A stretch of 34,515 nucleotides of DNA. Origin: a virus. This document shows positions 5,973 through 27,144 of this stretch, piece after piece. Position 1 is the first letter of the stretch. The number at the start of each line of letters is the position of its first letter. A model generated the notes under the pieces. The model had not been told where the DNA came from and searched no databases. It was given only the letters and a program-made list of their open reading frames with translations. The stretch lies in IMG/VR virus record IMGVR_UViG_3300013936_000007, positions 1 through 34,515 of that record, one strand, 5' to 3'. The translations under genes were made by a program, and so were the position numbers.

Positions 5973-6261
5973 GGACTCCTACCCCCTTATCATCCAGGTA
6001 CACATCCGCATAGATTTTGCGCGGGTTATACCCCAGCATTTTAATTGCCGCGGGAGCGTTTTCGTTCACGAGGTTCGGACGCAGACCATTGGACACGCAA
6101 AACACGATTGCATCGCTCAGCCGTTTTCCGGCTCGGCAAGTCCACAGAATGATAATATCACCGGAGCGCTGGCGCAGTGCCAGATGCCGAAATAGCCTAT
6201 GGTTTGCGCTGCCGTCTTGCAGCTGGAGTGTCCCATCAAAGTCAACTGCTATGATTGCCAT
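5944..6261 (-). CDS. small HAD-like hydrolase-fold protein (tentative)
   Basis: MAIIAVDFDGTL contains a DxDGT HAD motif I. The ATG at 6261 is preferred over the TTG at 6267. Confidence 0.45.
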   Translation of the reverse strand: MAIIAVDFDGTLQLQDGSANHRLFRHLALRQRSGDIIILWTCRAGKRLSDAIVFCVSNGLRPNLVNENAPAAIKMLGYNPRKIYADVYLDDKGVGVHDNLGAGLE

Positions 6262-7663
6262 CGTCAACGTCCTCGTTGTTCAGCTCCGTCAGCACCTTCT
6301 GCCCCCTGACCCGCTGTTCCTGGGCGCGGATCCTCCGGATGTCCGCCTGGTCAAACCCGATCATCTCGAGAAAAGTGTCGGTAGACGCGAATTCCTGCCT
6401 CGCGGAAGCGATTTTGATAGCGGCATCCGCGGTCACGGCCACGCTGGGCATAGCTGGATTTTTGAAATGCGCCACGATGTCCTGCTCAGCGTCCTCCAGC
6501 GCATCCAGACTGCAATTCCGGGCAACCGCCTGCGCCATCAGTGCAATGGTCTTAAGGCTGTCCCCATTGCCGGAGTTCAGCTGCTGGGCCATCAGCACCA
6601 GCGTCTGGCTTTGAGCGAGGATTGCGTCCGAGCTGGTGGGGTTGGCGTCGTTGATAATGCCCACATCCGTCACGGTCAGCCCGGTGGCAGCAGAAAACTG
6701 CGTCGCCACCATCCGGAGCTTGTCCACATGGGGGCTGAGACTGCCCTGGGCGAGCTGGCCGAAGGTCGGATTTTGCCCGGTCTCCGGGTTCTGCGTCGCG
6801 GCGATCAGGCTGCCCATGTACTGCCGAAACTTGTCCGACATAATCACGTCATACTGCTCATCCGTAACACCCAAAAGGTACTTCTGCGGCGTGGTATCAA
6901 ACTCCAGTGCAATGGTGGCGTTGGCAAGTACCCGGATATAGTCGTCGATCAGCGTCCGGATGGGGTATTTCAGCCGGGAGCGTCCAAAGGGTTTCCCGTT
7001 GGTAGCATTCCATACCAACGGCTCCATGATCGGTCTGCCGATGCTGTGCGCCAGCCGTGTTTTTACGTTCCACCCACTCGGCGTGCGGCTGAGCACGATA
7101 ATGGCTTTGTCGGTGTAGAGATTCACCAGGGACGGCGTCCAGCTGTCCTTATATTTTTCGTCCTTCGCGGTGTCGATGATTGCCAGACCGCAGGATATGC
7201 GCCCTTTGTCGCCGTCCCACAGCGCCGATGCGGTGGCGGGACTGTGCCAGCGGATCTTGCACCCCAGCTCATCATCCGGCGACAGCGTAGCAAAGACACA
7301 GCCGTATTTCAGCTCATCTCGGCACGCCTTTTGGTACTCTGCTACCATACGGTTTTTCTCGATGATCTCAGTCAGCGCCGTGGTGTCATTGCCGTTCGCG
7401 CCCACAAAGCCGTCAAACATGGACCGGGCAGCCAGCACATCCACGGCGGTCTGGCCCCAGTTACACCCGACCGCCAGCCGTCCCAGCCCGTCCGGGAGCG
7501 CAATGCCGATGTTGACGTCCCGCAGGGTGACCTGCCCCTCATAGTACTTGTCTTTGGTGGCATTTTTACTCTGATGGTAGTTATACACGTCGGCAAGCTC
7601 CACCAGCTGCTGCTGTTCCGCGTCATTCAGCCCCTGGACACGTCCAAAGTTCAAACTTGTCAT
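6242..7663 (-). CDS. portal protein
   Basis: 473-aa ORF directly after the large terminase, with RBS AAGAAGGTGA. Confidence 0.8.
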   Translation of the reverse strand: MTSLNFGRVQGLNDAEQQQLVELADVYNYHQSKNATKDKYYEGQVTLRDVNIGIALPDGLGRLAVGCNWGQTAVDVLAARSMFDGFVGANGNDTTALTEIIEKNRMVAEYQKACRDELKYGCVFATLSPDDELGCKIRWHSPATASALWDGDKGRISCGLAIIDTAKDEKYKDSWTPSLVNLYTDKAIIVLSRTPSGWNVKTRLAHSIGRPIMEPLVWNATNGKPFGRSRLKYPIRTLIDDYIRVLANATIALEFDTTPQKYLLGVTDEQYDVIMSDKFRQYMGSLIAATQNPETGQNPTFGQLAQGSLSPHVDKLRMVATQFSAATGLTVTDVGIINDANPTSSDAILAQSQTLVLMAQQLNSGNGDSLKTIALMAQAVARNCSLDALEDAEQDIVAHFKNPAMPSVAVTADAAIKIASARQEFASTDTFLEMIGFDQADIRRIRAQEQRVRGQKVLTELNNEDVDDGNHSS

Positions 7664-7675
7664 ATCTTCACCTTC

Positions 7676-9121
7676 TTACCCGATCCGCATCTTGCGGTTG
7701 GGGTCTCTCTTACTGGTCTTTGCTCCCCACAGCGCCAGGGCACATGCCTCAATCGGCAGGCTGTTGTCGCCGCCGAAGCCGTACCCGCCGCCGAAGGCCC
7801 GCTTGGTTGCGGTAACGGCGCTATCATTCAGCGCCGCCTGGGGCTTGTACCAGCTGAGGGTGCCATCGTTGACGGCATCAGTCAGCACGGACACCGCCGC
7901 AATCACATTTTTGGTATTGGCGCGGACAACAGCATCCTTCGCCCGCCAGGTATCGGAGATCCGATCCACCAGCACGTCCACGCCGTTGCGCCCGTCAATC
8001 ACCACGCAGCTGGCGCGGTCATACCGGGCATTCAGCCAATCCGCCAGCCACCGGATGCCCCGGCCGCAGGGCTGCATATCAATCAGCGAGATCCGCGCCG
8101 GTCCCTCCTGGGGGATTACAGCGCCGCACAGGCACACAGCCGAGCCGTCAGCGGCAAACTTCACGCCGTAGGCGGTCTTGCCCTCCGGCTTCCGCTCCTC
8201 CGACGCGCATCGCTCCCAGGCGGCCTTGTTCAAGGCGAAGTCCTCCTGCTCCGTCAGCACCGGGCTCCACCAGCCAAGCCGCTCCCGGGCAAAGCCGTCC
8301 CGGCTCATGCTCCGCAGCTCCTCGGCGGTAAAATCCTCGGTGAGATGGATGCCCAGCGCCGGATTGGTCTGGTACCACAGGTCCCGATCGTCAACGCTGA
8401 TCTTTTCCGCGTCGTCTCCGTCCGCACTCCACTCATGCCATGCATCATGCGCGCCGGGGGTCTGGAGGCAGGCCGTGCGTCGCCTGCGGAAAACAGTACC
8501 GGGGCACCCCGGATATGGAGGTGTCCCGGTATAGATGATCTGTCTGGTGCCGGTGGCCGAGGCTGCCAGTGTGGCCATAATAGCCTCCACCTGATCGTCC
8601 GTCAGCTCCTGGGCCTCATCGTACACAACCAGGCTGACCCCATCAAAGCCACGGACAGCCTGCCGTGATCGCGCGGAAAACTCGATCGAGCCGCCGTTGA
8701 CCAGCTCGATCGCTTCCTCTCCGTTCGTCCGGCGGATATTTTTGACCAGCGCGGCAATCTCCGGATGGCGCTTGTCGGTAAACATCCGCGCCAGCCGGTT
8801 AAATCCCTTTTTCGCCGTCCTGACCTGATGCGCCGTGTGGAGGATCTTTTCACCGCTGACCACCAGCCCGAAAAACTCCCGGGCCTCCAGGCAGACGTTT
8901 TTCCCATTCTGCCGCGGCAGCGCCAGACCCGCAGAGGTAACGCTGTAAGCGCCGGACGCATCGCGCCCGAGCCAGCAATCTACCACACTCCGCTGCCAAG
9001 GGTCCAGACTGTTGCCATACGCCGCCATCAGGATTGCAGCATCCTCGCCGTCAGATCGTACCCGCTCCGGCTCCACCTGAATCCTCGGCGTCTGTGATCC
9101 AATGCGATCCGCCATCGTCAC
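7676..9121 (-). CDS. terL: terminase large subunit
   Basis: 481 aa with Walker A-like LPRQNGKN and Walker B-like VVYDEAQE. The GTG at 9121 overlaps the terS stop; an alternative ATG is at 9115. Confidence 0.9.
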   Translation of the reverse strand: MTMADRIGSQTPRIQVEPERVRSDGEDAAILMAAYGNSLDPWQRSVVDCWLGRDASGAYSVTSAGLALPRQNGKNVCLEAREFFGLVVSGEKILHTAHQVRTAKKGFNRLARMFTDKRHPEIAALVKNIRRTNGEEAIELVNGGSIEFSARSRQAVRGFDGVSLVVYDEAQELTDDQVEAIMATLAASATGTRQIIYTGTPPYPGCPGTVFRRRRTACLQTPGAHDAWHEWSADGDDAEKISVDDRDLWYQTNPALGIHLTEDFTAEELRSMSRDGFARERLGWWSPVLTEQEDFALNKAAWERCASEERKPEGKTAYGVKFAADGSAVCLCGAVIPQEGPARISLIDMQPCGRGIRWLADWLNARYDRASCVVIDGRNGVDVLVDRISDTWRAKDAVVRANTKNVIAAVSVLTDAVNDGTLSWYKPQAALNDSAVTATKRAFGGGYGFGGDNSLPIEACALALWGAKTSKRDPNRKMRIG

Positions 9122-10473: not shown

Positions 10474-11235
10474 CTACCTCCCCCCAGAATTAAAATGCGG
10501 CCCGTATAACTGGCCCGGTTTGGGCAGCCAGTATTTGATGAATGCGAACTCGCCCCACTCGTTTCGTGTACCATCCCGCTCAATGGTCACGGCTCCAGCC
10601 GGTGCCTCCAGAGTCACCTCATCGGGCACATCAATGGTCTCGACTTCCGGACGTTTCAGTCCCCGGCATGGGGTCCAGGTTCGTTCCCCCGGACGGGGTT
10701 TGCCATGATCCCGTGGCTCATGGGTCATATAGGTTGCCTTGTCCGTCACAGCCTGATCGTCGTTCTGCCACTCTATATAAATATTAGACCCATATGTCCA
10801 CAGGGCCCGGATGGTGTCAAAATCATCCTTACCGCCGTCGGCAGCGGACAGGACCATATGATGATGCAGCCGGAGACTGCCATCGTCCTGCACCTGCTGG
10901 GTACAATATATATATAGTAGCTGCTTGCCTTTGAGCTTCCATGCAGCGCGCAGTTTCCGAATGTACTTCCGCATGACTGCACCGGCGGCTTTGCGATCCT
11001 CAGGGAGGTGGGCATCATCATATGTCAGTGTCACCCACCAAAAGCCGCCAGGGAAATTCAGCGCAATCAGCATCTCCAATTTGTCCGTGGATTTCGAGAG
11101 ATTAAATCTTGCCTGTGCCTCCGTGCTGATCTGGCGTCTCGGCCCGCGGGAACGTGGCTCCGGCTGCCGGGAGGGCGCAGTGTACACGACACTGCGCACC
11201 AGCCGACCAGCTCTCATCGTCTTGAGCTTCTTCAT
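10474..11235 (-). CDS. HUH-superfamily rolling-circle Rep-like protein
   Basis: Motif I-like WWVTLTYDD, HUH-like LHHHMVL and a downstream Tyr region (KATYMTHE). The ATG at 11235 overlaps the upstream stop (ATGA). Confidence 0.55.
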   Translation of the reverse strand: MKKLKTMRAGRLVRSVVYTAPSRQPEPRSRGPRRQISTEAQARFNLSKSTDKLEMLIALNFPGGFWWVTLTYDDAHLPEDRKAAGAVMRKYIRKLRAAWKLKGKQLLYIYCTQQVQDDGSLRLHHHMVLSAADGGKDDFDTIRALWTYGSNIYIEWQNDDQAVTDKATYMTHEPRDHGKPRPGERTWTPCRGLKRPEVETIDVPDEVTLEAPAGAVTIERDGTRNEWGEFAFIKYWLPKPGQLYGPHFNSGGR

Positions 11236-11399
11236 GGTTTCTGACCGGCGCACGTTGCGCAGATGTAATGATCCACGATAGCTACAGATTCTTCTCGGGT
11301 AAAACCCTGCGTCACCAGCTGATCTCGCATAAATCCAGCGATTTCAGCGAGGGCCCCAATGCTGATCAGAATCGCTTTAACGTCAAGTTTCGGCTCCAT
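11232..11399 (-). CDS. hypothetical small protein
   Basis: 55 aa starting at the ATG at 11399, with RBS AGGAGG at 9-nt spacing. Confidence 0.5.
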   Translation of the reverse strand: MEPKLDVKAILISIGALAEIAGFMRDQLVTQGFTREESVAIVDHYICATCAGQKP

Positions 11400-11400
11400 T

Positions 11401-11613
11401 TTATTTTTCCTCCTGCTTGGTTGTTGTGGGTTGGTATTGCAAAGCATGAGGCCCATATCTCTGAACCTTTGCGACCCGTTCCGCGTGGACTTTGGGGTTC
11501 CAGCCGCAGCGGTCACATTTTCGTTGGCTGCAAAAGCTGCCCCGCATGACGATCCCACTGAGGGGGCAGATATACGTATCATCCACTTGTATCACCCGCT
11601 CCTTTCGTGGCAC
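11401..11613 (-). CDS. small Cys-rich (zinc-ribbon-like) protein
   Basis: 70 aa with a C..(n)..CSQRKCDRC pattern. The start is uncertain because it overlaps the upstream ORF by 35 nt. Confidence 0.4.
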   Translation of the reverse strand: MPRKERVIQVDDTYICPLSGIVMRGSFCSQRKCDRCGWNPKVHAERVAKVQRYGPHALQYQPTTTKQEEK

Positions 11614-11800
11614 CGGTCAGTTCTTCCAGCCGTTCCGCAGCATCCATTCCGATCTTGTCACAGTCACAGCTTCGAATCTCTTCCTCGCGCCATGTCTCGG
11701 TGACGCAATAGGGGCACGTCTTGCACTCGCTATCATCCGGCATTGGGCTGCTGCTGCACCGCAGCGCCCAGATCAGCCGTTCGTCGTTTACTCTGTCCAT
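11579..11800 (-). CDS. small Cys-rich protein
   Basis: Start at the ATG at 11800, 6 nt after GGAGGA and directly after the parB stop. Contains CKTCPYC...CDC. Confidence 0.5.
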   Translation of the reverse strand: MDRVNDERLIWALRCSSSPMPDDSECKTCPYCVTETWREEEIRSCDCDKIGMDAAERLEELTGATKGAGDTSG

Positions 11801-11802
11801 AC

Positions 11803-12996
11803 TCATTCCTCCGGTACCGGCATCCAGCCGCCCACAAGCTCCTGAATGGCCGTCGCGCCATCCTTGCGCATCAGCCATGCATCTCCGTCCCAGTACAGCA
11901 CACGATACTTGCATGAGTTGTCGACCTTACAGGTGTAATACCCATCCTTCGGCGGCTCCCCGGTCTGCCAGACGCTTTCCGCGTCCGCATCTCTCGCTGC
12001 CGCCAGTTTTCGGATTGCCAGCAGGGCCAGATAGTCATACACCTGGGAGTAGCTGATGGGCATTGTCCGATCACTGGCACTTCCGAAGGATATACCATTT
12101 GACATTCCTTCGACGCCGCGGGAGCTACAATAATAATAGCGAAATGCCTGTTTCAGCAGGGCAACAGCCTCTTTTTTGCATCCGGCGGTGCGGATCCTGC
12201 CGCAAAGCATAGGAGCTGCACCGTCCATTTTGGACAAAACTCCATCCGTTTCCTTCCGGATCGCCTCATACTCAGCATCTACGTCCTTTTGGTACACTTT
12301 ATCATTCAAGCTCAGCTGCCGCACGGTTTCTTTCTGCTCCGCTTCCGACTGTCTCGCCAGCTGATAGGCTTCCGAGGCGTTCAGCTCACCGGCTGCCACC
12401 TTCTCCATGGCTTCCGGTACCAGATTCTCGTTGACGGTATGCATCCGGCTGACCTCGTTCCGGCTGACGCCCATGGAATCGGCAATGTACTGGCTCAGCC
12501 CGCTGGGCAGCTTCCGTCCCTGGGCTTTCATCGCCAGCAGCGTCTCCCGCATAGCCTTCTCCTGCTGGAGCTTGTCTGCATAGCTCAGTTCACGGGCGGT
12601 GGCGTTGGCAGTCAGCAGGGCAAATTCCTCGTCCAGCGTGTCCAATTTGGACATAATGATGGAGGGAATTTTGTCAAACTCCATTCCGTGTGCTTCATCC
12701 CGCAGCAGCTGATACGCTGCCAGTCTCCGGTGCCCGGAAACCAGCCGGTAGCCGCGATCCTCTGCCGCAACCACCCGCACCGGATCCAGAAGGCCCACAA
12801 TGCTGATGCTCTCCGCAAGGTTCCGGATCCCGGCGATCTCGTAGAAGTTTTTGTCGTTTGCTTTGATGGCGTCCAGCGGGATCAGCCGGATCCGCTCCGC
12901 CTGGGGCTGTGCAGCCTCCGAGGGGCCGTGGATGGCAGCTGTGATGTCAAATGCCACTTGGAGCCACCTCCCATCCCGTGCTGTCCAGCGTTCCAT
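11803..12996 (-). CDS. parB: ParB-like partition protein with extra C-terminal domain
   Basis: The N-terminal ParB/Srx box LIPLDAIKAN...LLDPVRVV...YRLVSGHRRLAAYQLL includes the GxRR arginine patch. The gene lies directly downstream of parA. Confidence 0.8.
   Translation of the reverse strand: MERWTARDGRWLQVAFDITAAIHGPSEAAQPQAERIRLIPLDAIKANDKNFYEIAGIRNLAESISIVGLLDPVRVVAAEDRGYRLVSGHRRLAAYQLLRDEAHGMEFDKIPSIIMSKLDTLDEEFALLTANATARELSYADKLQQEKAMRETLLAMKAQGRKLPSGLSQYIADSMGVSRNEVSRMHTVNENLVPEAMEKVAAGELNASEAYQLARQSEAEQKETVRQLSLNDKVYQKDVDAEYEAIRKETDGVLSKMDGAAPMLCGRIRTAGCKKEAVALLKQAFRYYYCSSRGVEGMSNGISFGSASDRTMPISYSQVYDYLALLAIRKLAAARDADAESVWQTGEPPKDGYYTCKVDNSCKYRVLYWDGDAWLMRKDGATAIQELVGGWMPVPEE
12222..12236. 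repeat. dispersed palindrome copy 3: CGTCCATTTTGGACA
   Basis: Inside parB; translated as L-S-K-M-D-G. Confidence 0.9.
12639..12653. repeat. dispersed palindrome copy 4: TGTCCAATTTGGACA (perfect)
   Basis: Inside parB; translated as M-S-K-L-D-T. Confidence 0.95.
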
Positions 12997-13792
12997 CAAT
13001 GGTCACGCTCAAAAACTGGGCCACAAAATCCCGGTAATCCCGTCCGGCGCTGCTGTACCGGCTGTACTCGCCCAGCGCCTGACCGTAGTAGGTACTTTCG
13101 TCCACCTTGTCGCTCCGGCGGATCATGGCCGGGTAGAGCAGGACGTTTTCGGGGAGCGCATCCTCCAGGACAACCAGTCCCTGCTTGCATGCCTCCGAGT
13201 TGTGCCACATAGTAACCAGCACCGAGGGCAGCACCTCCCGCTCCGACGTCGATGCAATGATCTCGATCTGCTCCAGAATAAACTGGGTGGCCCTATATCC
13301 GAAGTAATCCACCTTGATGGGGATAATCACATCGTCGCTGCAATAGATGGCAGCCGCCGAGGGGCCGCTGAATGCAGGCGGGCAGTCAATCACCACGAAA
13401 TCGTACGGCCTGTCCGTCTCGCTGATGGCAGCAATAAAATCGCTGAGCCGTTTGGTGCAGTCGTCCGCGCTGGTCAGCCCCAGCACGAGCATCTGGCTGC
13501 AACTGGGCACCAGATCGAGCCCGGAATACCGGGTAGGGTAGATCATGTTTTCCGGGTACGCTTCCGCGCCGGTCAGCAGGTCATAGGCCCCCGCAATATT
13601 ATCCAGCTCCCAGTGGTCGCCCATAGGCGTGGGCGTGCCCAGCAGTGCTGTCAGGTCTGCCTGGGGATCCAGGTCAATGGCGAGCACGTGCATGCCGTAC
13701 TCGCTGGCGAGGATCTGGGCCATGTTGGCAGCAGTGATGGTTTTGCCCACGCCGCCTTTACTGTTCATAATACTAATTACCTTTGTCTTCAT
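12947..13792 (-). CDS. parA: ParA/Soj-type partition ATPase
   Basis: Deviant Walker A NSKGGVGKT, then LAIDLDPQ and VVIDCPP. Start chosen at the ATG at 13792. Confidence 0.9.
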   Translation of the reverse strand: MKTKVISIMNSKGGVGKTITAANMAQILASEYGMHVLAIDLDPQADLTALLGTPTPMGDHWELDNIAGAYDLLTGAEAYPENMIYPTRYSGLDLVPSCSQMLVLGLTSADDCTKRLSDFIAAISETDRPYDFVVIDCPPAFSGPSAAAIYCSDDVIIPIKVDYFGYRATQFILEQIEIIASTSEREVLPSVLVTMWHNSEACKQGLVVLEDALPENVLLYPAMIRRSDKVDESTYYGQALGEYSRYSSAGRDYRDFVAQFLSVTIDGTLDSTGWEVAPSGI

Positions 13793-15107
13793 TGTCGCAT
13801 TTAGTCCCTTCCATATTGATTTCTTGCTGCTCAAACGGCACGGGGGTGCTGTCCGGCAGCGGTTTGTAGACGTTCGGCACCGGCGGAGTCGATTTTGTGG
13901 GGATCGGCTCGAACCTCTGCGTCGCGCCGTACCAATTCAGCTCCAGCTGACCGGTTCGGCCCTGCTTGTTCTTGGCGATCTTAAGCTGGCGATGCCCGTT
14001 AAAATCCCCTTTGCTGGCGAGATACAGCAGCATAATGCTGTCGGCGTCCTGCTCGATCTGACCGGATTCCCGGAGGTCGGACATCCCGATTTCCTCGCTC
14101 TTTTTGTCGGCCTTAAATTCACGGCTGACCTGGCTCAAAGCGTGGACGAGGATTTTGTTGCGCTGGGCCAGCGTATGGATCCGCATGGAGATCTTTGCGA
14201 CCTCCTGCGTCCGGTCCCGTGCGTCGCAAGAGATCAGCTGGAGGTAGTCGATAAAAATCACGTCATACCGGTGTGCGACGGCGTGATGAAAAATTTCATC
14301 CACCGTCCACCCGTGAGCGCTCTGAATCCATAGCTTATGATTTGCCAGCTTTTTGCTGGCGGAAGCGATCCGGCTATAGTCAAATTTGTCGAGGGTCTGC
14401 TTGTTTGTCAGGGCGTCCATACTGACGCCGGACGACGCTGCAAGCAGCCGCTCATATAGCTGATCGTCGTCAGCCTCCAGCGTGTAGTAGCCCACTCGGT
14501 AGTCCACCGACTGGTTATATGCAATCTGCAAAGCCAGTGCGGTTTTGCCTCTTCCGGGGGCCGCTCCAATGACGTTCATGCCGCCGGGGCGGAGATGGAC
14601 CCGGCCGTCCAGCTCTGGGATCCCGGTTAAGAGATACCGCTCGCCGGTCTTGCAACGGTCGTAAAATCGCATGGTCAAATCCATCATGCTGCTCTCGTTC
14701 TGACGTCCATTTTGGACACAAAGCTCATTGGCCTTTTGGATCGACTGCTGCATCTCGTTGAGGTTATCCGCCCTGGCCCCCTCCGACAGCAGCTCCCGCA
14801 GCCTTGCCATCCGGCTGCGCTCCTTGACGAGGGTTATGTACTGCCCCAGCATGGCGGTGGATGGTGTCAGCTCCACAAGCTGGCTGAGGTAGTCCCGGTA
14901 TTCCGGTCCCAGTCTGGCAGCCACCAGCACCGGATCCGGGTTTTGACCACCGGCGAAGATCTTGGAGATCACCTCATAGGCCGCCAGTGCAGCCCCGGAG
15001 AAGTCCTCCTTGCTGGTGTTGCTCAGCAGTTCCGCCGCAAGGCTGGGATCTACAAGGACGCAGCCGATGGCGGCGTTCTGACTTTCCAACCACTCGCTGT
15101 TTACCAT
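13773..15107 (-). CDS. dnaB: replicative DNA helicase (DnaB family)
   Basis: 444 aa with the N-terminal DnaB domain motif AAIGCVL, Walker A GAAPGRGKT, and IFIDYLQLI. Confidence 0.9.
   Translation of the reverse strand: MVNSEWLESQNAAIGCVLVDPSLAAELLSNTSKEDFSGAALAAYEVISKIFAGGQNPDPVLVAARLGPEYRDYLSQLVELTPSTAMLGQYITLVKERSRMARLRELLSEGARADNLNEMQQSIQKANELCVQNGRQNESSMMDLTMRFYDRCKTGERYLLTGIPELDGRVHLRPGGMNVIGAAPGRGKTALALQIAYNQSVDYRVGYYTLEADDDQLYERLLAASSGVSMDALTNKQTLDKFDYSRIASASKKLANHKLWIQSAHGWTVDEIFHHAVAHRYDVIFIDYLQLISCDARDRTQEVAKISMRIHTLAQRNKILVHALSQVSREFKADKKSEEIGMSDLRESGQIEQDADSIMLLYLASKGDFNGHRQLKIAKNKQGRTGQLELNWYGATQRFEPIPTKSTPPVPNVYKPLPDSTPVPFEQQEINMEGTKCDNEDKGN
14704..14718. repeat. dispersed palindrome copy 5: CGTCCATTTTGGACA
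   Basis: Inside dnaB, in a different reading frame (C-V-Q-N-G-R). Confidence 0.9.
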
Positions 15108-17871: not shown

Positions 17872-18078
17872 TTAAGTCCCCTCCAGAAACCGCTCGATCT
17901 TGCAGCCAAACACCGCTGCCAGACCTGCCGCCACTTGAAGGCTGGGGTTTCGTGTACCACGCTCGATTTGGCAGAGCGCTGCCTGAGTGATGCCAACCCG
18001 CTCCGCGGTTTCCGCCTGGGTTAGATTCTGGGATTCACGGACTTCCTGGATGTTCTTCCCTATGGTCACTCCGTTCAC
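17872..18078 (-). CDS. Cro-like XRE-family HTH regulator
   Basis: 68 aa with LTQAETAERVGITQAALCQIERG. It is divergent from the CI-like gene. Confidence 0.8.
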   Translation of the reverse strand: MNGVTIGKNIQEVRESQNLTQAETAERVGITQAALCQIERGTRNPSLQVAAGLAAVFGCKIERFLEGT

Positions 18079-18111
18079 CCCCTTCTTGTGCTTTATCCCT
18101 TTTTGTGGTAT

Positions 18112-18149
18112 AGTTAAGGAAATTGCTTAACTTAGTTATATTATTAACT
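18112..18149. promoter_or_regulatory. candidate operators of the genetic switch (AGTTAAG-N7-CTTAACT and AGTTA-N6-TAACT)
   Basis: Two adjacent palindromes sharing the AGTTA/TAACT half-site, in the 149-bp divergent intergenic region. Confidence 0.5.
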
Positions 18150-18227
18150 CACTTTTTTGAGATTGTCAAGCTATTTTCTCATTTTAGTAAGAAGTTTAGC
18201 ACATTGCACAAAAAGGGAGTGATAATT

Positions 18228-18581
18228 TTGTTTTGGGAACGTTTTAGCCAACTATGCGATGAGCATGGAATTAAGCCGAATCCATTAGCCAAAGAAATCG
18301 GCATTTCTTCCGGTATCATCACAAAATGGAAAACAGCCGGAACACTGCCGAACGGAGAAACGCTTAAAAAATTGGCAAGCTATTTCGGTTGCTCTATTGA
18401 TTATCTCCTTGGGCTTTCCGGAGATGCAGAAAAATCCCCTTTCGTTTCGGAAGAGGATCAGGATCTGCTAAATACGGTTCACCGGCTGGATGCACGGGAT
18501 CAAGGCAAAGTGTTGGGCTATGCCGAAAGCCTTCTGTCTGCCGAGAAGTACTTGGCGAAAGACGGATTCAAAAACGCTTGA
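18228..18581 (+). CDS. CI-like XRE-family repressor
   Basis: HTH NPLAKEIGISSGIITKWKTAG. The probable TTG start at 18228 lies 8 nt after AAGGGAG; the longer ORF from 18123 is hydrophobic junk. Confidence 0.7.
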   Translation: MFWERFSQLCDEHGIKPNPLAKEIGISSGIITKWKTAGTLPNGETLKKLASYFGCSIDYLLGLSGDAEKSPFVSEEDQDLLNTVHRLDARDQGKVLGYAESLLSAEKYLAKDGFKNA

Positions 18582-18645
18582 ATAACACCATATTTGTCGA
18601 ATTTTAAGATAACATCGGAGAGAAAACAGGAAGGGACGTGTAAGC

Positions 18646-19767
18646 ATGGCATTGATTGTGATTGTGGTTCTAATAAGCATATTTCTGGTTTGGAAATCCA
18701 ATAAGAAGAAAAAAACGGTGAACCACGGAAGCGAAATCAAACAGATCAAGAGCCAAGGAACAGTTCCAAAGCCGCCACAGCAACGTACACCTAAACTTGA
18801 CGGCATTATAACCGATGTAAAAAAAGACAATAGTACATCTACCCAAGTTTCTTATGCAGGAAAGCAACCTAAGTTTGGCAATGACTTTCATGCTTATACA
18901 CTTCCGTTTGAGCGGCATAAATCCTTGAATTTGCTTCGGGGCATGATTGCTGGTGCATCTTGCGACGGGGCGATCTCCGACAAGGAGCTTACGGAAATAG
19001 CTGGTTGGTGTAACGCGCAAGTGTCGCTTTATGACCTTGAACCCTTCTTCCAGCTCCATTCGATCGAGTACCGGTTCATCAGTACAGGGCGTATCAGCAA
19101 TAACGATAGGAAGACTTTGCTCACTGGATATATGCACCCGTCAACTATACGAAAGCGCATAGATGAAAAAACCTCCGAGGCGCAGTTCCTCACAGGCCTT
19201 TGCTATGGCCTGATCTCAGACGCAGAGCTTACAGATTTCGAAGTGCAGGCGCTTGATGATTGGCTGTCTACGAATGAAAATCTAAAAGGCTCCTTTCTGT
19301 ACGACAACCTGTCAGAACTCGTTTCAAAAGCTTTAGAGAGTAGCCCGATACAGGAGCAAGACAGAATCGCGCTATATTGTTTCATTGGAGATTTAGTGGA
19401 CTTCCGATATTCCGCCAATTTATGTGCTTCGGACTTCGACAATCTCAAGCGTGAATACTGCATAAAGGAGCTTGTCGAAAAGGATGCTGTGATTACGCTT
19501 CCCAAACATAGTATTTGCCTTGCTGGGCAATCTTCGAGAGCATCCCACGATGAGCTTCTTTCGATTTTGGAGCAGTGCGGTGCGCTGTATAGAGAGCACG
19601 TGTCAAGTAAGACAGATTATCTTATAGTCCTTGATGTTCCGGATCCCGCTTGGTCTTTCCCACGATATGGTCGTAAATTCGAGCGCGGCATTGAACTTAT
19701 GCAGTCAGGATCAAAGCTCAAAATTGTGTCAGAGACGGTATTCTGGAACGCTGTTGCGGTTGTGTAG
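18646..19767 (+). CDS. membrane-anchored protein with two TerB-like repeats and a C-terminal BRCT domain
   Basis: N-terminal TM segment MALIVIVVLISIFLVW followed by KKKK. TerB-like repeats MIAGASCDGAISDKELTEIAGW and LCYGLISDAELTDFEVQALDDWL. The BRCT-like C-terminus reads ICLAGQSSRASHDELLSILEQCGALYREHVSSKTDYLIV...KLKIVSETVFW. Confidence 0.65.
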   Translation: MALIVIVVLISIFLVWKSNKKKKTVNHGSEIKQIKSQGTVPKPPQQRTPKLDGIITDVKKDNSTSTQVSYAGKQPKFGNDFHAYTLPFERHKSLNLLRGMIAGASCDGAISDKELTEIAGWCNAQVSLYDLEPFFQLHSIEYRFISTGRISNNDRKTLLTGYMHPSTIRKRIDEKTSEAQFLTGLCYGLISDAELTDFEVQALDDWLSTNENLKGSFLYDNLSELVSKALESSPIQEQDRIALYCFIGDLVDFRYSANLCASDFDNLKREYCIKELVEKDAVITLPKHSICLAGQSSRASHDELLSILEQCGALYREHVSSKTDYLIVLDVPDPAWSFPRYGRKFERGIELMQSGSKLKIVSETVFWNAVAVV

Positions 19768-19780
19768 TTGCATTGCAAAC

Positions 19781-19813
19781 AACGCCCCGCGTCCAATTTG
19801 GACACGGGGCGTT
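19781..19813. terminator. bidirectional hairpin terminator between convergent genes, with a copy of the dispersed palindrome in its loop
   Basis: AACGCCCCG-CGTCCAATTTGGACA-CGGGGCGTT. Confidence 0.55.
19790..19804. repeat. dispersed palindrome copy 6: CGTCCAATTTGGACA
   Basis: Intergenic, forming the loop and inner stem of the terminator hairpin. Confidence 0.9.
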
Positions 19814-19830
19814 ACTTTACCTGTAATTCC

Positions 19831-20235
19831 TCAGCCGATTCCCAGTTTGTTTCTCAGTGCATCCTGGAGCACCTGAGAAAAGTTCAGTGCATTCTTTTCC
19901 GCCAGATCGTTCAGCCAAGCCGGAATCGACAGTGTTTTCTTTACCGATTTGCTTTCGTAGAATCGCCGGTACCAGTCTGTATCACAGGACACCAGCGAAA
20001 CGAACGCATCGTTATCATGGGCAATTTCGTTCACACCGGAGGGCTCCGGAATCGTTTCCCCCTCCTGCTCCATTTCGTACAGGGTTAAGCACAAAACATC
20101 GTTTGCCATTTCAAGTCCTTCCTGAATGGATGCCGCGCTGGTATAGCAGCTTTCCAGATCGGGGAAGGAAATCGAATACCATTCGCCCTCCTTCTTGAAG
20201 ACGGCAGGATAAGCATACTTCGCCATATCTATCAT
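19831..20235 (-). CDS. hicB: HicB-family antitoxin
   Basis: 134 aa. The N-terminus YAYPAVFKKEGEWYSISFPDL is a HicB-like fold and the C-terminus is a DNA-binding-like tail. The gene lies directly downstream of hicA. Confidence 0.85.
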   Translation of the reverse strand: MIDMAKYAYPAVFKKEGEWYSISFPDLESCYTSAASIQEGLEMANDVLCLTLYEMEQEGETIPEPSGVNEIAHDNDAFVSLVSCDTDWYRRFYESKSVKKTLSIPAWLNDLAEKNALNFSQVLQDALRNKLGIG

Positions 20236-20263
20236 TTCCTTTCTTGGGGTGGGAACCCCGGTC

Positions 20264-20449
20264 TTATTTCAGACCGGAGTCCTGTAGGATGTTTTTCAAT
20301 GTACCGGGTGGCACCTCCTGAGTTTTGTGCCGCCCAACCGGGAACTTCTTTCCGGTGATCGGGCTGTACCATATATCATGCCGGCTTCCGTCCCGTACTA
20401 TGTAGCAGCCCGCTTTCTTGAGCTTCTGCGTAAGCTCACTGTATCGCAT
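20264..20449 (-). CDS. hicA: HicA-family mRNA interferase toxin
   Basis: 61 aa: ELTQKLKKAGCYIVRDGSRHDIWYSP..GKKFPVGRHKTQEVPPGTLKNIL. Confidence 0.9.
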   Translation of the reverse strand: MRYSELTQKLKKAGCYIVRDGSRHDIWYSPITGKKFPVGRHKTQEVPPGTLKNILQDSGLK

Positions 20450-20902: not shown

Positions 20903-21130
20903 GTGGAAATCAGAATTGCGGAGCAGATCCGCGCTCTGCGCAAACGCAGCGGGTACCGATCGGCGGCGGCACTGGCGGCAGCACTGTGTCTCTCCGGCTA
21001 TGATTGCTCTGCGTCGTTGGTCAAAAGCTGGGAAGCCGGGGTGCGGTACCCGACACTCCCGGCCGTCCGGGCGCTGTGTGACCTGCTGGAGGTAAGTGCC
21101 GACGAGCTGATCTTTGGCGTGGAAAAATAA
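20903..21130 (+). CDS. XRE-family HTH regulator upstream of integrase
   Basis: GTG start. Contains IRALRKRSGYRSAAALAAAL...VKSWEAG. A TATAAT box is at 20879..20884. Confidence 0.7.
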   Translation: MEIRIAEQIRALRKRSGYRSAAALAAALCLSGYDCSASLVKSWEAGVRYPTLPAVRALCDLLEVSADELIFGVEK

Positions 21131-21292: not shown

Positions 21293-22378
21293 TTGCCGAA
21301 GAAAAAAGGGCTCGACTATGCCAGTTTGTACACGCTCCGGAAGGACGGGCGGTATATGTATCGCTGGACGGATTCTTCCGGCCGGCACTGCCTGTACGAC
21401 AAAGATCCGGAAAAGCTCTGGCATAAGATCAACGATCCAAAGCCGGAAGTGGTGTACACGTTTGCAGACGCCGTGGACGAGTGGGAGCGGCAGCACCTTG
21501 AGGAAATCAGCTATAAGACCGCCGAGGCCTACGCGGCCCCCACCCGGCGGTTGAAAGAGCAGTATGGGGCGCGTCCGGTATCCGATATCACAGCTGCCGA
21601 TGTGGCAGCTTATCTCTCCGTGCTGGGCAAAAAGGGCTTTTCCAAGCGGTCCGTGCAGATGCATCGGGACATCCTCAACATGGTTTTTAACCACGCCATT
21701 GTGGCGGGGCACATCACGGCAAATCCGTGCGCCGCTGTGTCTATGCCGCGGAACCTCCCATCGCACAAGCGGGAGTTGCCCACCGACGAGGCCATTCAAG
21801 CCGTCAAGCACGGTGCAGACGTGCCCTTTGGTTTGTTTGCCCTGGTGTGCCTTTACGCCGGACTGCGGCGCGGGGAAGCGCTGGCATTGACCTATGAGGA
21901 CATCGACAGAGACGCAGGCGTCATCCATGTGACCAAGGCCGTGGAGTTTATCGGCAACAACCCGCACCTGAAAACGCCCAAAACCGCTGCCGGTTACCGG
22001 GATGCGATCCTGTTGGATGCTTTGGCCGCAGCACTCCCGGAAGATGGCGCCGGGCTTTTGTTTCCGCGCCAAGACGGCGGCCTGCTTACAAAGATCCAGT
22101 ATCGCAAACGCTGGGCAAAATATTGCGAGGCCATCGGCTATGAGATCACCGCCCATCAGCTGCGGCACGGCTTTGCGACGATCCTATACGAGGCTGGAGT
22201 ACCGGACAAAGACGCCCAAGAGCTGCTGGGCCATAGCAGCATCACCGTCACCCGGGACGTATATACTCACATCCGGCAGAGCCAGCGGAGTGCCACAGCC
22301 AGCCGCCTGAACCGGTATATTGCCGGGGAGGACGCCGAAAAAGCTGACACCAATTCTGACACCAAAGAACCGGAATAA
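21293..22378 (+). CDS. int: tyrosine site-specific integrase
   Basis: TTG start 8 nt after AAGGAGG. C-terminal catalytic signature GLRRGEALAL...HQLRHGFAT...LLGHSSITVTRDVYTHI. Confidence 0.92.
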   Translation: MPKKKGLDYASLYTLRKDGRYMYRWTDSSGRHCLYDKDPEKLWHKINDPKPEVVYTFADAVDEWERQHLEEISYKTAEAYAAPTRRLKEQYGARPVSDITAADVAAYLSVLGKKGFSKRSVQMHRDILNMVFNHAIVAGHITANPCAAVSMPRNLPSHKRELPTDEAIQAVKHGADVPFGLFALVCLYAGLRRGEALALTYEDIDRDAGVIHVTKAVEFIGNNPHLKTPKTAAGYRDAILLDALAAALPEDGAGLLFPRQDGGLLTKIQYRKRWAKYCEAIGYEITAHQLRHGFATILYEAGVPDKDAQELLGHSSITVTRDVYTHIRQSQRSATASRLNRYIAGEDAEKADTNSDTKEPE

Positions 22379-22815: not shown

Positions 22816-23850
22816 CTATGCTCGATTAAGAATGATCAACACCCGGATCGCACTCAACGGTAGATCCAGCACAAGATCCTCCCCTTCCCCGGATTTGCCC
22901 TTGAGTTTCCCGTCCGCGATCAGTTTGTCCAGCTCCTGCCGGTACCCGCTGGGCACCTCCCGCAGTAAGTGGCAGTACTGCTCAATCGGGCGCATCTCGC
23001 CGCTGTCGTTGAGCCCTACAACCATATTGGTCAGCATTGCGCCGCCGAGGTCGAGGTAATAACACTTGCCTTTGCTGTCCACGTACCACTGATCCTCCAG
23101 TATATAGCCCTCAGAATCGAAGCGGTACCACTTGCCGTCGATTTTGGCCCAGCGATCGTGGTAATAGCTTGCCTCGGTGTCGGCGTACCACCGCCCTTTG
23201 GCGTCGCAATGCCAACCCAGCGTATATTTTCGGCTGTTGGTGATTGCGCCGGAATTGGCCATAATATTGATGTCAAACTTGCCGGAGCAGCCCGGGATGG
23301 TATAACTGCTGCTGTACTGCCAGAGATCATAGGCGGTAACGCTGGGCGCGGAGGCATACTGCGCGTACCACTGGCTGTACCCTCCGACGCTGTCCAGATC
23401 CACCATCCGGTTGTAGTAGTCTTTGTTGTAGTACACACCGGGGGCGTAGCCTGTCGCCTTGATCGCCTCACAAAATGCCACCGTGTGAGAGTTGAACGCA
23501 GCTTTGCCCAGCGTCACGCCACACTTGGCTGCATAATCGACGGAATCGTACTCCATATCGAAATACACGGGCAACACGATCTTGTTCTTGTAGGGCTCTA
23601 AGAGGCTGAGACAGAACGCTGCCTCTTTTTTTGCACCTGCTGCATCCAGCGCATAAGAAAAATGGTACACGCCGATGATAATCCCCTGCGCGATCGCACC
23701 GGCCATGTTGGCCTTGAACTGGTTATCTACGTGGGACACGCCGTAGCCGTCCCGAATAATCGCGAATTTAATGCCGGCCTTTTTGATGGCGGCCCAGTCC
23801 AGTACCCCGTTGTGCTCGCTGACGTCGATGCCGAGCCACTTATTCGCCAT
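22816..23850 (-). CDS. endolysin: GH25 muramidase plus C-terminal cell-wall-binding repeats
   Basis: N-terminus GIDVSEHNGVLDWAAIKKAGIKFAIIRDGYG...GVYHFSYA. C-terminal aromatic repeats GRWYAD..DGKWYRFDSEGY..KGKCYYLD. Confidence 0.9.
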   Translation of the reverse strand: MANKWLGIDVSEHNGVLDWAAIKKAGIKFAIIRDGYGVSHVDNQFKANMAGAIAQGIIIGVYHFSYALDAAGAKKEAAFCLSLLEPYKNKIVLPVYFDMEYDSVDYAAKCGVTLGKAAFNSHTVAFCEAIKATGYAPGVYYNKDYYNRMVDLDSVGGYSQWYAQYASAPSVTAYDLWQYSSSYTIPGCSGKFDINIMANSGAITNSRKYTLGWHCDAKGRWYADTEASYYHDRWAKIDGKWYRFDSEGYILEDQWYVDSKGKCYYLDLGGAMLTNMVVGLNDSGEMRPIEQYCHLLREVPSGYRQELDKLIADGKLKGKSGEGEDLVLDLPLSAIRVLIILNRA

Positions 23851-24832: not shown

Positions 24833-24962
24833 CGCTGTTTTCCTCCTCCGTTTTCACGCCCAAAACATTGAGCGCCTCGGCCATCTGGGCACGTTCCGCT
24901 GCCTCAGTGGCGGCTTCGGCATTCGTCTGGGCGCGGTTCCGCACATATTCCATAAGCGTCAT
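24822..24962 (-). CDS. 46-aa XkdX-like small ORF (tentative)
   Basis: Translated by hand as MTLMEYVRNRAQTNAEAATEAAERAQMAEALNVLGVKTEEENSDER. RBS GGAGGTGG. ATGA overlap with the upstream stop. Confidence 0.4.
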   Translation of the reverse strand: MTLMEYVRNRAQTNAEAATEAAERAQMAEALNVLGVKTEEENSDER

Positions 24963-25909
24963 TCGCCATCCACCTCCACAATTACAGCGGGCTCGCCGCA
25001 TACGGCTCTACCTCCACTTTTGGCATAGATCTTAACTCCCAGCTGCCATTTGTCGGTTTCCTTGGTCTCATTCGGCAAATCCACCGCAACACCGTTCTGG
25101 CACTCGACCCATGCAGGGTTGTCGTCGCCTGCGTTGTTTGATAAGTAGATTTGACTTTCCGTAGCATTCGTGATCTCAACCTCGACTTTGGCTCTCTTAA
25201 GTCTGGTATCAGTCTCGCCGCAAATCACGGCGTACTTCAACTCTCGGTACAGATGTGTCACGTCAGGTAGGATATAGATTGTGTCCTCCCCAAGGTCGGA
25301 CACCATTGTGGCATTTGCCACCTTAAAAGCGGGGCGCGGGCAGTAACCGGCGACGGACGCGCCGTCGCTGCTGAGACCGCCGTTGAAGTAGACGAAGCGC
25401 ATCCGCTCGGACGAGCCCGCAGACCGCAGCCACCAGTAGACCGCACTGCCAGCAGAATTATAGGCAATTCTGGCTGTATTGTCGTTCGTGGTGTTGTCCC
25501 GGTGAGTCTTGAGCGCAGATAGAATGCTGTCACCCTCTGCACCACCAGCTGCGATAACCTCGCTCTCGCTGAGTAGAAATGCTTGCCGTGCAATTTCGGC
25601 CACATCGGTAGCATCATAGGGTTTAACCTTGATCTGTGTAGGAATAATGCAAGCCTGCATTGGTGCATCAAAATAAGAGAGATACCCGCCGTCAGTATTA
25701 TTGAGCCACGCGTCCATCTCACTGTCGATGTAGGCAGCTACATTCGTGGGGTTGATTCTCCGTCCGGCCAACGTCTCAGCTCGAAGCAGCACTACGCCGT
25801 CGGAATCCTTACGGATTGGCCAATATTTTACGGTTGTGGTCACGCCGTTGACGGTTTCCTCGTACCACAGTTCCTCCGAGAGATCAATCGTTTCAATCGC
25901 TCTTGCCAA
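24959..25909 (-). CDS. DGR target (variable) protein, putative receptor-binding protein
   Basis: TTG start at 25909, 9 nt after AAAGGAG. Contains the VR. The FLLSESEV...YWWLRSAGSS...CPRPAF pattern resembles lectin-fold-type DGR variable regions. Confidence 0.85.
   Translation of the reverse strand: MARAIETIDLSEELWYEETVNGVTTTVKYWPIRKDSDGVVLLRAETLAGRRINPTNVAAYIDSEMDAWLNNTDGGYLSYFDAPMQACIIPTQIKVKPYDATDVAEIARQAFLLSESEVIAAGGAEGDSILSALKTHRDNTTNDNTARIAYNSAGSAVYWWLRSAGSSERMRFVYFNGGLSSDGASVAGYCPRPAFKVANATMVSDLGEDTIYILPDVTHLYRELKYAVICGETDTRLKRAKVEVEITNATESQIYLSNNAGDDNPAWVECQNGVAVDLPNETKETDKWQLGVKIYAKSGGRAVCGEPAVIVEVDGE
25308..25321 (-). other. hairpin GTGGC-AAAT-GCCAC 7 nt downstream of the VR
   Basis: 5-bp stem and 4-nt loop. 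A second inverted repeat, GTGTCC-N11-GGACAC, is at 25281..25303. Confidence 0.4.
25329..25452 (-). repeat. DGR variable repeat (VR)
   Basis: 124-bp match to 27021..27144 at a constant offset of 1692. There are 19 mismatches, and 18 are at TR adenines on the coding strand. Confidence 0.9.
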
Positions 25910-26957
25910 TTATTTCAACTCCTTTCATTGTTGTTCTCGTTCGATACCCTGCTTTTTTCAAAAGCAGGGTAAAATGTCTATCCATCTCGATTGCTACATT
26001 TCGGCACCCGGCACGCAGAACTCGTTGTCTCCAGCCTTGATACCTCAGCTGTACTTGTTCCGGAGTCAAATTCCCATTCGCCAGCTCACGCACGACCATT
26101 TTCAGCTCACGTTTCTTTGCCTTTTTCTTGCCATTTTGTAACCTCACAAGGGATATTCCGCCATCGGTCAAAATGTACGTAAAGCCAAGATAGTCCACGC
26201 GCCCGCGCTGGATCGTCGTCTTTGGGTTCAGCTCCAGCCCGATCTCCGCAAGGTGCTTTTCGATAACTCCCAGTAAGTGCTCCAGCTCCTCTCGGGTCGG
26301 TGCAATCACGTAGAAATCATCCATATGGCGTCCGTATAGTTGGTAGCCGTAGTCCTCGGTTATCAGCTGATCCAGCGTCTCTAGATACAGGTTCCCATAG
26401 CATTGGCTCTGCTGTAGCCCTAGAGGCATTCCGACAGGCGAATCATTATATTGGATATACGCCCTGCTGATCCGCAGAATATCCGGGTCTGTGATAACCT
26501 CCTCGGCCAGCCGAACCAGACGCTCCCGTGAGACGGAAGCGAAATAAGAATGAATGTCGCCTTTGAGAATCCACGGAGTTTCATGGCTTGCGTGCCAGTA
26601 ATCGCGCAGCAGCTTTGTAAGTCTTGCAGTACCGTATTCGGTGCCCCGCCCGATCAAACACGCGGAGATACCATCGCCGAGACGTGAAGCCACAGCTGGG
26701 TAAATCGTGTTGTCGCACAGTGCGTGCATGATGATCTTGTCGCGCACGGTTGGCACCTGCGCGATTCTCGGTTTGGGGACGTCGATGCGAATCAAGCCCA
26801 TAGGCAGCGGCTTAAAATCTGGGGATGCAAGCTGCTGCCGAATTTTGTAGATGTGATCATCGAGATAGTATTCGTATCGCTGGTACCTGTCCAGCGCAGT
26901 TTTCCCACGCCTGACCTCACGCCAGGCGTTTTCTATTTGTGCATAGGTCGGTATCAT
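25893..26957 (-). CDS. DGR reverse transcriptase
   Basis: 354 aa with LGLQQSQ (the [LIV]GxxxSQ motif characteristic of DGR RTs) and YGRHMDDFYV (YxDD box). Confidence 0.92.
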   Translation of the reverse strand: MIPTYAQIENAWREVRRGKTALDRYQRYEYYLDDHIYKIRQQLASPDFKPLPMGLIRIDVPKPRIAQVPTVRDKIIMHALCDNTIYPAVASRLGDGISACLIGRGTEYGTARLTKLLRDYWHASHETPWILKGDIHSYFASVSRERLVRLAEEVITDPDILRISRAYIQYNDSPVGMPLGLQQSQCYGNLYLETLDQLITEDYGYQLYGRHMDDFYVIAPTREELEHLLGVIEKHLAEIGLELNPKTTIQRGRVDYLGFTYILTDGGISLVRLQNGKKKAKKRELKMVVRELANGNLTPEQVQLRYQGWRQRVLRAGCRNVAIEMDRHFTLLLKKAGYRTRTTMKGVEIIGKSD

Positions 26958-27020
26958 ATATACCTCTTTTTAAGGGGCAGCTTCCTTTTCACGGGCTTCG
27001 TCATCTAAGTTTCCGTCAGA

Positions 27021-27144
27021 GCGGGGCGCGGGCAGTTTCCGGTGTTGGACGCGTTGTTGCTGTTGAGATTGCCGTTGGAGTTGACGTAGCGCATCTGCTC
27101 GGACGAGCCCGCAGACCGCAGCCACCAGTTGACCGCACTTTTAG
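27021..27144 (-). repeat. DGR template repeat (TR)
   Basis: Intergenic between avd and the RT. Read in the target frame it gives the Asn-rich AVNWWLRSAGSSEQMRYVNSNGNLNSNNASNTGNCPRPA. Confidence 0.9.

Follow-up and report, generated by a model that had tools for sequence, protein, structure and literature searches.

Lysogeny module of the phage

The stretch of DNA analyzed here, called the window, is the whole of the 34,515-nt IMG/VR virus record IMGVR_UViG_3300013936_000007, which by its PHROG matches is the complete genome of a temperate siphovirus, a temperate gut phage. Our subject is a gene of its lysogeny module encoding a 373-residue protein with a predicted N-terminal membrane anchor and a C-terminal BRCT domain. 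The interval under study (18228-19767) begins at the TTG start codon of an upstream gene encoding a 117-residue CI-like helix-turn-helix (HTH) protein, and thus comprises this repressor gene plus the gene of the 373-residue protein, which has an ATG start and the ribosome-binding site AGGAAGGGA. The module runs in the order Cro-like gene, switch region, CI-like gene, gene of the 373-residue protein, hairpin, hicBA, small HTH gene, and tyrosine integrase gene (Table 1). The CI-like protein matched HTH_3 (E 1.4e-9), Phage_CI_repr (2.8e-3), NCBIfam RstR (6e-10), and DicA (8e-7); it consists of an HTH region only and lacks a peptidase domain. A search of the integrase-proximal site for tRNA genes gave none. 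The same phage had been assembled independently from another sample as a 34,499-nt contig (L172) with identical gene calls.

A scan of the 64 nt between the repressor gene and the 373-residue open reading frame (ORF) gave no terminator-like site, and folding of this spacer was ordinary (z = +0.56). The first strong hairpin lies between the convergent 373-residue gene and hicB. It is a 33-nt, GC-rich palindrome with a weak T-tract, and the 71-nt stretch that contains it (19765-19835) had a folding energy of -29.8 kcal/mol (z = -4.7), with 0 of 200 shuffles as stable. The hairpin is likely a bidirectional terminator. An earlier sequence-only reading of this DNA had placed the gene behind the CI-like gene on the same strand with no terminator between them, had put the first terminator at 19781, and had compared the position with that of rexAB behind cI in lambda; all three points held, the placement behind the repressor in the lysogeny module being correct.

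The GC content is 0.31 in the switch region, about 0.45-0.46 in the CI-like and 373-residue genes, and 0.56 in the phage genome. Comparison of the gene with its homologue P0002 (84% identical; locus L171) gave a dN/dS ratio of 0.16 overall and 0.12 in the linker, indicating purifying selection on the entire ORF, anchor and linker included. A gene-call artefact in a low-GC patch was ruled out by the dN/dS value and by independent assemblies and pipelines that called the same 373-residue gene.

Table 1 Coordinates of the lysogeny module, of the parts of the 373-residue protein, and of other genes of the window (AF2, AlphaFold2; TM, transmembrane; pLDDT, predicted local distance difference test score)
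Feature	Position	Strand	Basis
Cro-like HTH regulator, divergent from repressor gene	17872-18078	-	HTH_3 E 1.9e-15; 76% nt identity to L001 equivalent
AT-rich switch region with divergent promoter-like sites and inverted repeats	18079-18227		GC 0.31; TTGACA-18-AATAAT on minus strand 18169-18140
CI-like repressor, 117 residues	18228-18581	+	HTH models; 83% identical to repressor upstream of P0003 in L001
Intergenic spacer with ribosome-binding site of the 373-residue gene	18582-18645	+	sequence; fold z = +0.56
373-residue ORF	18646-19767	+
TM helix and KSNKKKK flank (predicted), residues 1-22	18646-18711	+	hydropathy, AF2; hydrophobic N-terminus kept in P0002 and P0003
Disordered K/S/T/Q/P-rich tether, residues 23-78	18712-18879	+	pLDDT, composition, dN/dS 0.12
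First helical TerB-like unit, residues 79-169	18880-19152	+	motifs G103-D107-E114-E117 and D147-E154; DUF533 E 8.6e-4 at 87-123
Second helical TerB-like unit, residues 174-270	19165-19455	+	motifs G188-D192-E199 and D232-E239; pLDDT >90; relatives' TerB/DUF533 matches fall here
BRCT, RFC1/LigA type, residues 285-373	19498-19764	+	profiles and Foldseek; A293 and H301 replace family T and R
Hairpin	19781-19813		fold z -4.7; same hairpin on both sides of homologous gene in L171
HicB antitoxin	19831-20235	-	HicB_lk_antitox 1e-9
HicA toxin	20264-20449	-	HicA_toxin 2.4e-14
Small HTH gene	20903-21130	+	Pfam HTH_31 on identical contig L172
Tyrosine integrase, end of lysogeny module	21293-22378	+	Pfam Phage_integrase on identical contig L172
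Head protease	4779-5972	-	PHROG
Portal	6242-7663	-	PHROG
Large terminase	7676-9121	-	PHROG
ParB	11803-12999	-	PHROG
DnaB helicase	13773-15107	-	PHROG
Endolysin	22816-23850	-	PHROG
Reverse transcriptase	25893-26957	-	PHROG; phrog_1423 E 9e-71
Tape measure	31688-34435	-	PHROG
Tail proteins			PHROG

Domain architecture of the 373-residue protein

An AlphaFold2 model built from an 83-sequence alignment had a mean pLDDT of 79.6 and gave a helix at residues 2-21 (pLDDT 85-90), a helical region at 79-270, and an alpha/beta domain at 285-372. The sole strongly hydrophobic segment of the protein is residues 1-16 (Kyte-Doolittle mean of 3.46 over residues 1-15), followed by the sequence KSNKKKK, in agreement with the transmembrane helix and Lys-rich stop-transfer segment of the sequence-only reading. 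Given the Lys-rich flank after the only hydrophobic helix, the positive-inside rule predicts an N-out/C-in protein having its remainder in the cytoplasm. A secreted or outward-facing protein of the superinfection-exclusion (Sie) type was rejected in view of this flank and of the two-helix relatives, which likewise place the core in the cytoplasm. The Lys/Pro/Gln-rich linker was found as a disordered segment (pLDDT <50 at residues 23-77; residues 17-83 rich in Lys (13), Ser, Thr, Gln, and Pro) of about 60 residues, shorter than the 80 first proposed.

The C-terminal domain is well supported, by profiles and by the predicted structure, as a BRCT domain of the RFC1/LigA type. With the 373-residue protein alone PF00533 scored 16.8 bits, under the Pfam gathering cut-off of 21.3, and the same model matched 82 of the 83 aligned relatives (E ≤ 0.01; best 8.6e-11). 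The family profile searched against the PDB retrieved the BRCT domains of RFC1 (E 5.5e-6) and LigA (1e-4), and the NCBIfam LigA model TIGR00575 matched residues 284-330. In Foldseek searches the domain matched the BRCTs of RFC1, LigA, REV1, and TopBP1 (probability 0.97-1.0; target TM-score 0.5-0.58), and the model of residues 285-372 had pLDDT values of 82-97, except in a loop at about 331-340 (mean 58). The resemblance to the BRCT of NAD-dependent ligases noted from the letters was thus confirmed by the LigA/RFC1 profile and Foldseek matches. When the full model was compared with BFVD, Foldseek found nothing but ligase-like phage proteins with a BRCT domain, which gave no functional lead.

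The helical region is less readily named. The motif aDG..i...E (D-G-x-I-x3-E) occurs there four times, and D107, E114, D192, and E199 are each kept in at least 255 of 267 family members (D192 in 261 and E199 in 265). In the 373-residue protein PF05099 (TerB) gave no match at E ≤ 1, and DUF533 scored 19.4 bits vs a cut-off of 29.6. PF05099 matched 30 of the 83 relatives (best E 2.8e-5), each time over about 25 residues and mostly under the cut-off; relative P0196 scored 24.8 bits vs the cut-off of 24.4. Foldseek of the residues 79-270 model (pLDDT 84.4) against the PDB gave no match at E < 1, small all-helical domains being hard for this program. As the profile matches are short and mostly sub-threshold and the PDB gave no match, we call the region TerB-like motif repeats and not a demonstrated TerB domain. 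Hence, of the two TerB-like repeats first proposed the motif stands, in four copies, and the TerB domain is the weaker call; of the two Pfam models put forward with them, PF00533 found its domain in the relatives and, under the cut-off, in the protein itself, where PF05099 gave no match.

A large prophage family that includes K139 Orf2

In a PHROG search the 373-residue protein matched phrog_3989 only (E 3.5e-48; residues 84-370 against profile positions 8-292 of 296), a family annotated 'unknown function'. A tblastn search of a phage collection gave one set of relatives, made up of Orf2 from Vibrio cholerae phage K139 (E 8e-8) and similar proteins, and K139 Orf2 (NP_536630) itself matched phrog_3989 at 5.9e-135. 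The family-invariant residues D107, E114, D192, E199, G294, Y341-G-R-K, and E346, each found in >93% of 267 members, are all in the 373-residue protein. Judged from these alignments the protein is a divergent membrane-anchored member of the phrog_3989/K139 Orf2 family.

K139 Orf2, at about 300 residues, has the same two TerB-like helical units and C-terminal BRCT domain. As in the window, its gene immediately follows that of the repressor and precedes that of the integrase, being annotated in the K139 record as the second gene of the mapped PL lysogenic transcript cI-orf2-glo-int. However, Orf2 is only about 20% identical to the 373-residue protein, has no transmembrane helix or linker, and keeps the T-G...R...K pocket of its BRCT domain. 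The phages also differ, K139 being a P2-like phage of a Gram-negative Vibrio host in which the periplasmic exclusion protein Glo follows Orf2. One line of a review, citing Nesper 1999, credits superinfection immunity to 'K139 (Orf2)'. Our search of later literature on K139 Orf2 found only primer lists and one review sentence. The abstract of the original study reportedly states that Orf2 'is involved in preventing superinfection'.

A word-indexed search found four relatives besides the 373-residue protein itself. An exhaustive profile search gave 427 clusters at 50% identity (E ≤ 1e-30), nearly all of about 300 residues and spanning the whole profile, and a motif scan located relatives in at least 471 species genomes and 159 IMG/VR viral contigs. 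The genomes listed with relatives were mostly of Oscillospiraceae, Lachnospiraceae, and Bacilli, with some of Spirochaetota and Bacteroidota. Current annotations call the family 'BRCT domain-containing protein' or, wrongly, 'NAD-dependent DNA ligase'; relative P0025 carries an extra HhH2 and BRCT, the layout of the LigA C-terminus. The novelty that the sequence-only reading had implied for a gene joining a transmembrane helix, TerB-like units, and a BRCT domain was therefore not sustained. The core of two TerB-like units and a BRCT domain defines, as far as sequence comparison goes, a large, long-known, and uncharacterised prophage family, of which the membrane-anchored form is a rare variant. 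A literature search on the combination of BRCT and TerB in phage defence gave no paper on such an architecture; the sole 'BRCT' match, in a paper on integrons, was spurious and came from the string 'Brc'.

Relatives typically occupy the repressor-integrase slot

Whether homologues lie beside prophage repressors, a question raised with the original observation, was addressed by a survey of 80 genome loci in which ORFs were called and HTH, tyrosine-integrase, and serine-recombinase genes were detected with iterated hidden Markov models. An HTH gene was present on the same strand within 1 kb upstream in 41/80 loci (at position -1 in 25 and at -2 in 14), a same-strand integrase gene lay downstream in 47/80, and 34/80 had both. 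The integrase was never on the opposite strand (0/80) and was upstream in 1/80. These counts show that the family gene regularly lies between the repressor and integrase genes.

The closest relative with genomic context, P0003 in L001, lies behind an 83%-identical repressor, with a serine recombinase beside it in place of the tyrosine integrase. Alignment of window 17872-19767 with L001 8104-11063 gave nucleotide identities of 76% for cro, 82% for cI, and 67% for the 373-residue gene; at the protein level the repressor is far better conserved (83%) than the protein encoded downstream (56%). A shared cro-cI-X block (X being the family gene) next to a different integrase, together with the low GC content (0.31-0.46 vs 0.56), suggests an immunity cassette that can be exchanged. 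No repressor gene precedes the homologous gene (P0002) in L171: homology with the window starts only 44 nt upstream of the gene, which is 86% identical, and the 33-nt hairpin flanks it on both sides (L171 44-75 and 1307-1339). As a copy of the hairpin stands upstream in place of the repressor, the gene can also travel alone and looks like a hairpin-bounded cassette.

The hicBA pair of the window (19831-20449, minus strand), which is convergent with the 373-residue gene, is a neighbouring accessory cassette. HicA and HicB genes sit in the same slot beside family relatives in L001, L002, and L086.

Exonuclease partners and defence-type neighbours

In several clusters of the family (P0197, P0011, P0008, P0174, and P0014) a DEDDh (RNase_T) exonuclease is fused N- or C-terminally. 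Among the 80 genome loci the exonuclease was found in 11, fused in 1 and at position -1, +1, or +2 in 10; it lies on either side of the family gene and always on the same strand. Exonuclease-bearing loci are L086 (6001-7815), L084 (7001-8482), L010, L015, L024, L032, L043, L061, L062, L066, L071, L079, and L083. In L071 the exonuclease is fused to the family core, and L086 has the order repressor, P0185, exonuclease, hicA, and integrase.

The PADLOC model PDC-S48, which joins a DEDDh exonuclease, a TerB-like unit, and a BRCT domain, was matched in its C-terminal region 233-376 by relatives of the 373-residue protein (E 1e-6 to 1e-8); plain members, K139 Orf2 included, matched the model through their own C-terminal half, and exonuclease-fused members matched it end to end (E 7.5e-35). 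PDC-S48 is itself a candidate, and our literature search found no paper on it.

Three loci without an obvious repressor or integrase (L073 11-3646, L068 3703-5916, and L038 3577-4875) have the family gene directly behind a gene for a 1211-residue SF1 helicase (MTES_1575 endonuclease plus DUF3320), a DEAD-box helicase, or a DUF4041/T5orf172 protein. Such neighbourhoods are typical of defence loci. In about 11 loci the family gene is accompanied by a gene for an ImmA/IrrE-type metalloprotease (Peptidase_M78), which in some cases separates it from the repressor gene. Given this co-occurrence, the family protein is not simply the anti-repressor or induction protease of these modules, and a role as a substitute for an ImmA-like anti-repressor was rejected.

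The membrane-anchored variant

Most family proteins (233/267) consist of the core only. N-terminal transmembrane segments were found in 6/267, namely the clade of the window protein (P0001-P0003), P0010 (two transmembrane helices), P0012, and P0068. The N-terminal regions of the last three, with one to three helices, are unrelated in design. A low-complexity linker comes after every anchor, and the core is expected to be cytoplasmic in all anchored members. That anchors were gained independently several times suggests that membrane tethering is useful.

The clade of the window protein also departs from the family within the BRCT domain. It has Ala or Ser at position 293, where 250/267 members have Thr, and it alone has His301, where 236/267 have Arg. 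In the profile alignment these positions correspond to T415 and R423 of RFC1 (p140), which we take to contact the 5' phosphate of DNA as parts of a pocket of T415, G416, R423, and K458. Hence, the pocket of the 373-residue protein reads A293-G294...H301...K322 vs T-G...R...K. K322 and the G-[RS]-K helix motif are retained. The LigA and RFC1 BRCTs are the best matches in sequence and structure; unlike LigA and RFC1, the 373-residue protein has no ligase or clamp-loader catalytic domain. Four cysteines conserved almost without exception among the other Firmicute proteins of the family are missing from the clade, and from K139 Orf2 as well.

Proposed function and alternatives

Accessory genes of lysogeny modules that are expressed in the lysogen and encode membrane-associated anti-phage proteins are exemplified by lambda RexAB, Sie2009 of lactococcal P335 phages, and Ltp of Streptococcus thermophilus phage TP-J34, a comparison that draws in part on the introduction of PMC3952083. 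The 373-residue protein resembles these in its probable membrane association and in being encoded with or next to a repressor, whereas they are small and outward-facing or channel-forming and its large DNA-type domain is predicted to lie in the cytoplasm. The PHROG search detected no sequence similarity between it and RexAB or the Sie proteins. A second comparison, with the Shango and Ter systems, had been drawn in the sequence-only reading. Shango (the TerB protein SngA, the helicase SngB, and the ATPase SngC), Bunzi, and Dionysus share the short TerB-type aDG..i...E motif, and in Dionysus a TerB-like protein is likewise paired with membrane proteins, but none of the three has a BRCT domain. 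The neighbours of the 373-residue gene are the repressor gene, HicAB, and the integrase, and no gene for a helicase or ATPase partner is among them. What connects the protein with Shango or Ter is a short motif, with no PADLOC match.

We propose that the 373-residue gene encodes a lysogen-expressed superinfection-exclusion or defence factor, a role that we put at somewhat under an even chance. The earlier suggestion of such a role has gained support from homology (phrog_3989 with K139 Orf2, PDC-S48, and the exonuclease links), which makes an anti-phage function plausible. The gene would be transcribed with the CI-like repressor gene in the lysogen, and the single N-terminal helix of its product would enter the cytoplasmic membrane. 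The remainder would hang in the cytoplasm on its flexible tether of about 60 residues, near the site of DNA entry, where the RFC1/LigA-type BRCT domain may bind an incoming genome at its ends or at its nicked cos junction, or else a host factor at work there, with the two TerB-like helical units as a putative regulatory or oligomerising part. The superinfecting phage would then fail to establish, through superinfection exclusion or an abortive defence. In relatives the DEDDh 3'-5' exonuclease, fused or adjacent, may degrade the captured DNA, and in the nuclease-free phage of the window membrane tethering at the point of entry could replace the exonuclease, the protein acting by binding or sequestration.

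The data show the family membership, the domain layout, the operon position and its conservation, and the exonuclease association of relatives; expression in lysogens, topology, binding of DNA ends, and exclusion itself are inferred, and our confidence in these details is lower than in the role as a whole. In its most specific and speculative form, which we think improbable, the proposal is that a tethered, nuclease-free BRCT module that recognises DNA ends or nicks captures the leading end or the annealed cos site of the incoming genome on its exit from the injection channel, thereby preventing circularisation or ligation. Such a mechanism would be new for exclusion systems. The soluble and exonuclease-linked relatives, K139 Orf2 included, would then be anti-phage factors that are linked to repressors and directed at DNA ends, and together they would make up a large class, so far unrecognised, in the temperate phages of Gram-positive and Gram-negative bacteria.

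Several observations weigh against an exclusion or defence role. The K139 Orf2 phenotype is taken from a one-line review citation and from what the 1999 abstract reportedly states, and it might be immunity rather than exclusion. The 373-residue protein has no exonuclease domain and its module has no exonuclease ORF. No PADLOC model matched the protein, including those for Shango, Bunzi, and PDC-S48 (E ≤ 1 for the last), from which it also differs by its membrane anchor. The helical region matched no fold in the PDB, the L171 gene stands apart from any repressor gene, and replacement of the pocket Thr and Arg may have weakened or changed DNA-end binding.

The main rival reading makes the protein a regulator of the lysis-lysogeny decision, its BRCT domain sensing nicks, gaps, ends, or a damage-induced phospho-protein and the protein then inactivating or assisting the non-cleavable CI-like repressor; it would govern induction or immunity instead of acting against other phages. 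The tight adjacency to repressor genes and the movement of the cro-cI-X unit as one between prophages with different integrases are in keeping with such a partnership, and a 117-residue repressor without a peptidase domain needs another route of induction. A 2026 preprint independently reads cI/BRCT modules of Roseobacter prophages as DNA-damage-responsive, and 'preventing superinfection' would also describe a helper of repressor immunity. However, dedicated ImmA/IrrE-type anti-repressor proteases already accompany the family in about 11 loci, 39/80 loci have no same-strand HTH gene within 1 kb upstream, and in L171 a hairpin, not a repressor gene, stands upstream of the family gene. A membrane anchor is odd for a sensor of chromosomal damage, and the fused or adjacent exonucleases and the relation to a defence-island candidate also speak against regulation. 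We therefore regard a regulator as unlikely, yet serious.

Two further readings seem weaker still. The BRCT domain is nearest those of LigA and RFC1, P0025 reproduces the LigA C-terminal layout, and the gene is co-oriented with, and upstream of, tyrosine or serine integrases, so that the protein could serve the DNA transactions of the phage itself, for example by recruiting or mimicking the host NAD-dependent ligase or clamp loader at ends during circularisation, integration, or excision, and would be encoded beside the integrase as its working partner. Tyrosine and serine recombinases need no ligase, however, genes of the infection stage are not normally part of the repressor transcript, and the protein diverges faster than the adjacent repressor; as the membrane tether and the exonuclease fusions would also be left unexplained, we consider such an accessory quite unlikely. 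The anchor and the TerB-like motifs recall E. coli DjlA, which has a transmembrane segment, a TerB-like region, and a J domain, and low GC content would suit a 'moron' that benefits the host under envelope or metal stress and has no anti-phage role. That reading we find very hard to credit, since the TerB similarity consists of motifs of about 25 residues with no fold match, the invariant partner domain is a DNA-type BRCT, and the neighbours and fusion partners are nucleic-acid enzymes.

Repressor-linked genes are expressed in every lysogen and decide which other phages infect gut bacteria, and the slot described here is conserved in lysogeny modules from Vibrio P2-like phages to Oscillospiraceae siphoviruses. 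The present comparisons connect a large anonymous family with K139 Orf2, a member that has seen some experimental work, with a defence candidate, and with a nuclease that recurs as its partner. If the exclusion or defence reading is correct, the family adds a widespread prophage-borne system; if its members are damage-sensing regulators, they would explain the induction of many prophages whose repressors lack a self-cleavage domain.

Other features of the phage genome

ParA- and ParB-like partition genes and a REP_ORF2-G2P-like gene lie beside the DnaB gene (10474-13834, minus strand), in addition to the integrase gene of the lysogeny module. The presence of partition and REP_ORF2-G2P-like genes alongside an integrase raises the question of episomal persistence. 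The window also carries a diversity-generating retroelement (24959-27139) composed of the reverse transcriptase gene, a template repeat (27013-27139), and a variable repeat (25321-25447). The two repeats form a pair of 127 nt in which 15 of 19 mismatches fall at template adenines, and the variable repeat falls within a DUF6273 gene (24959-25909) that adjoins the tail and lysis genes.

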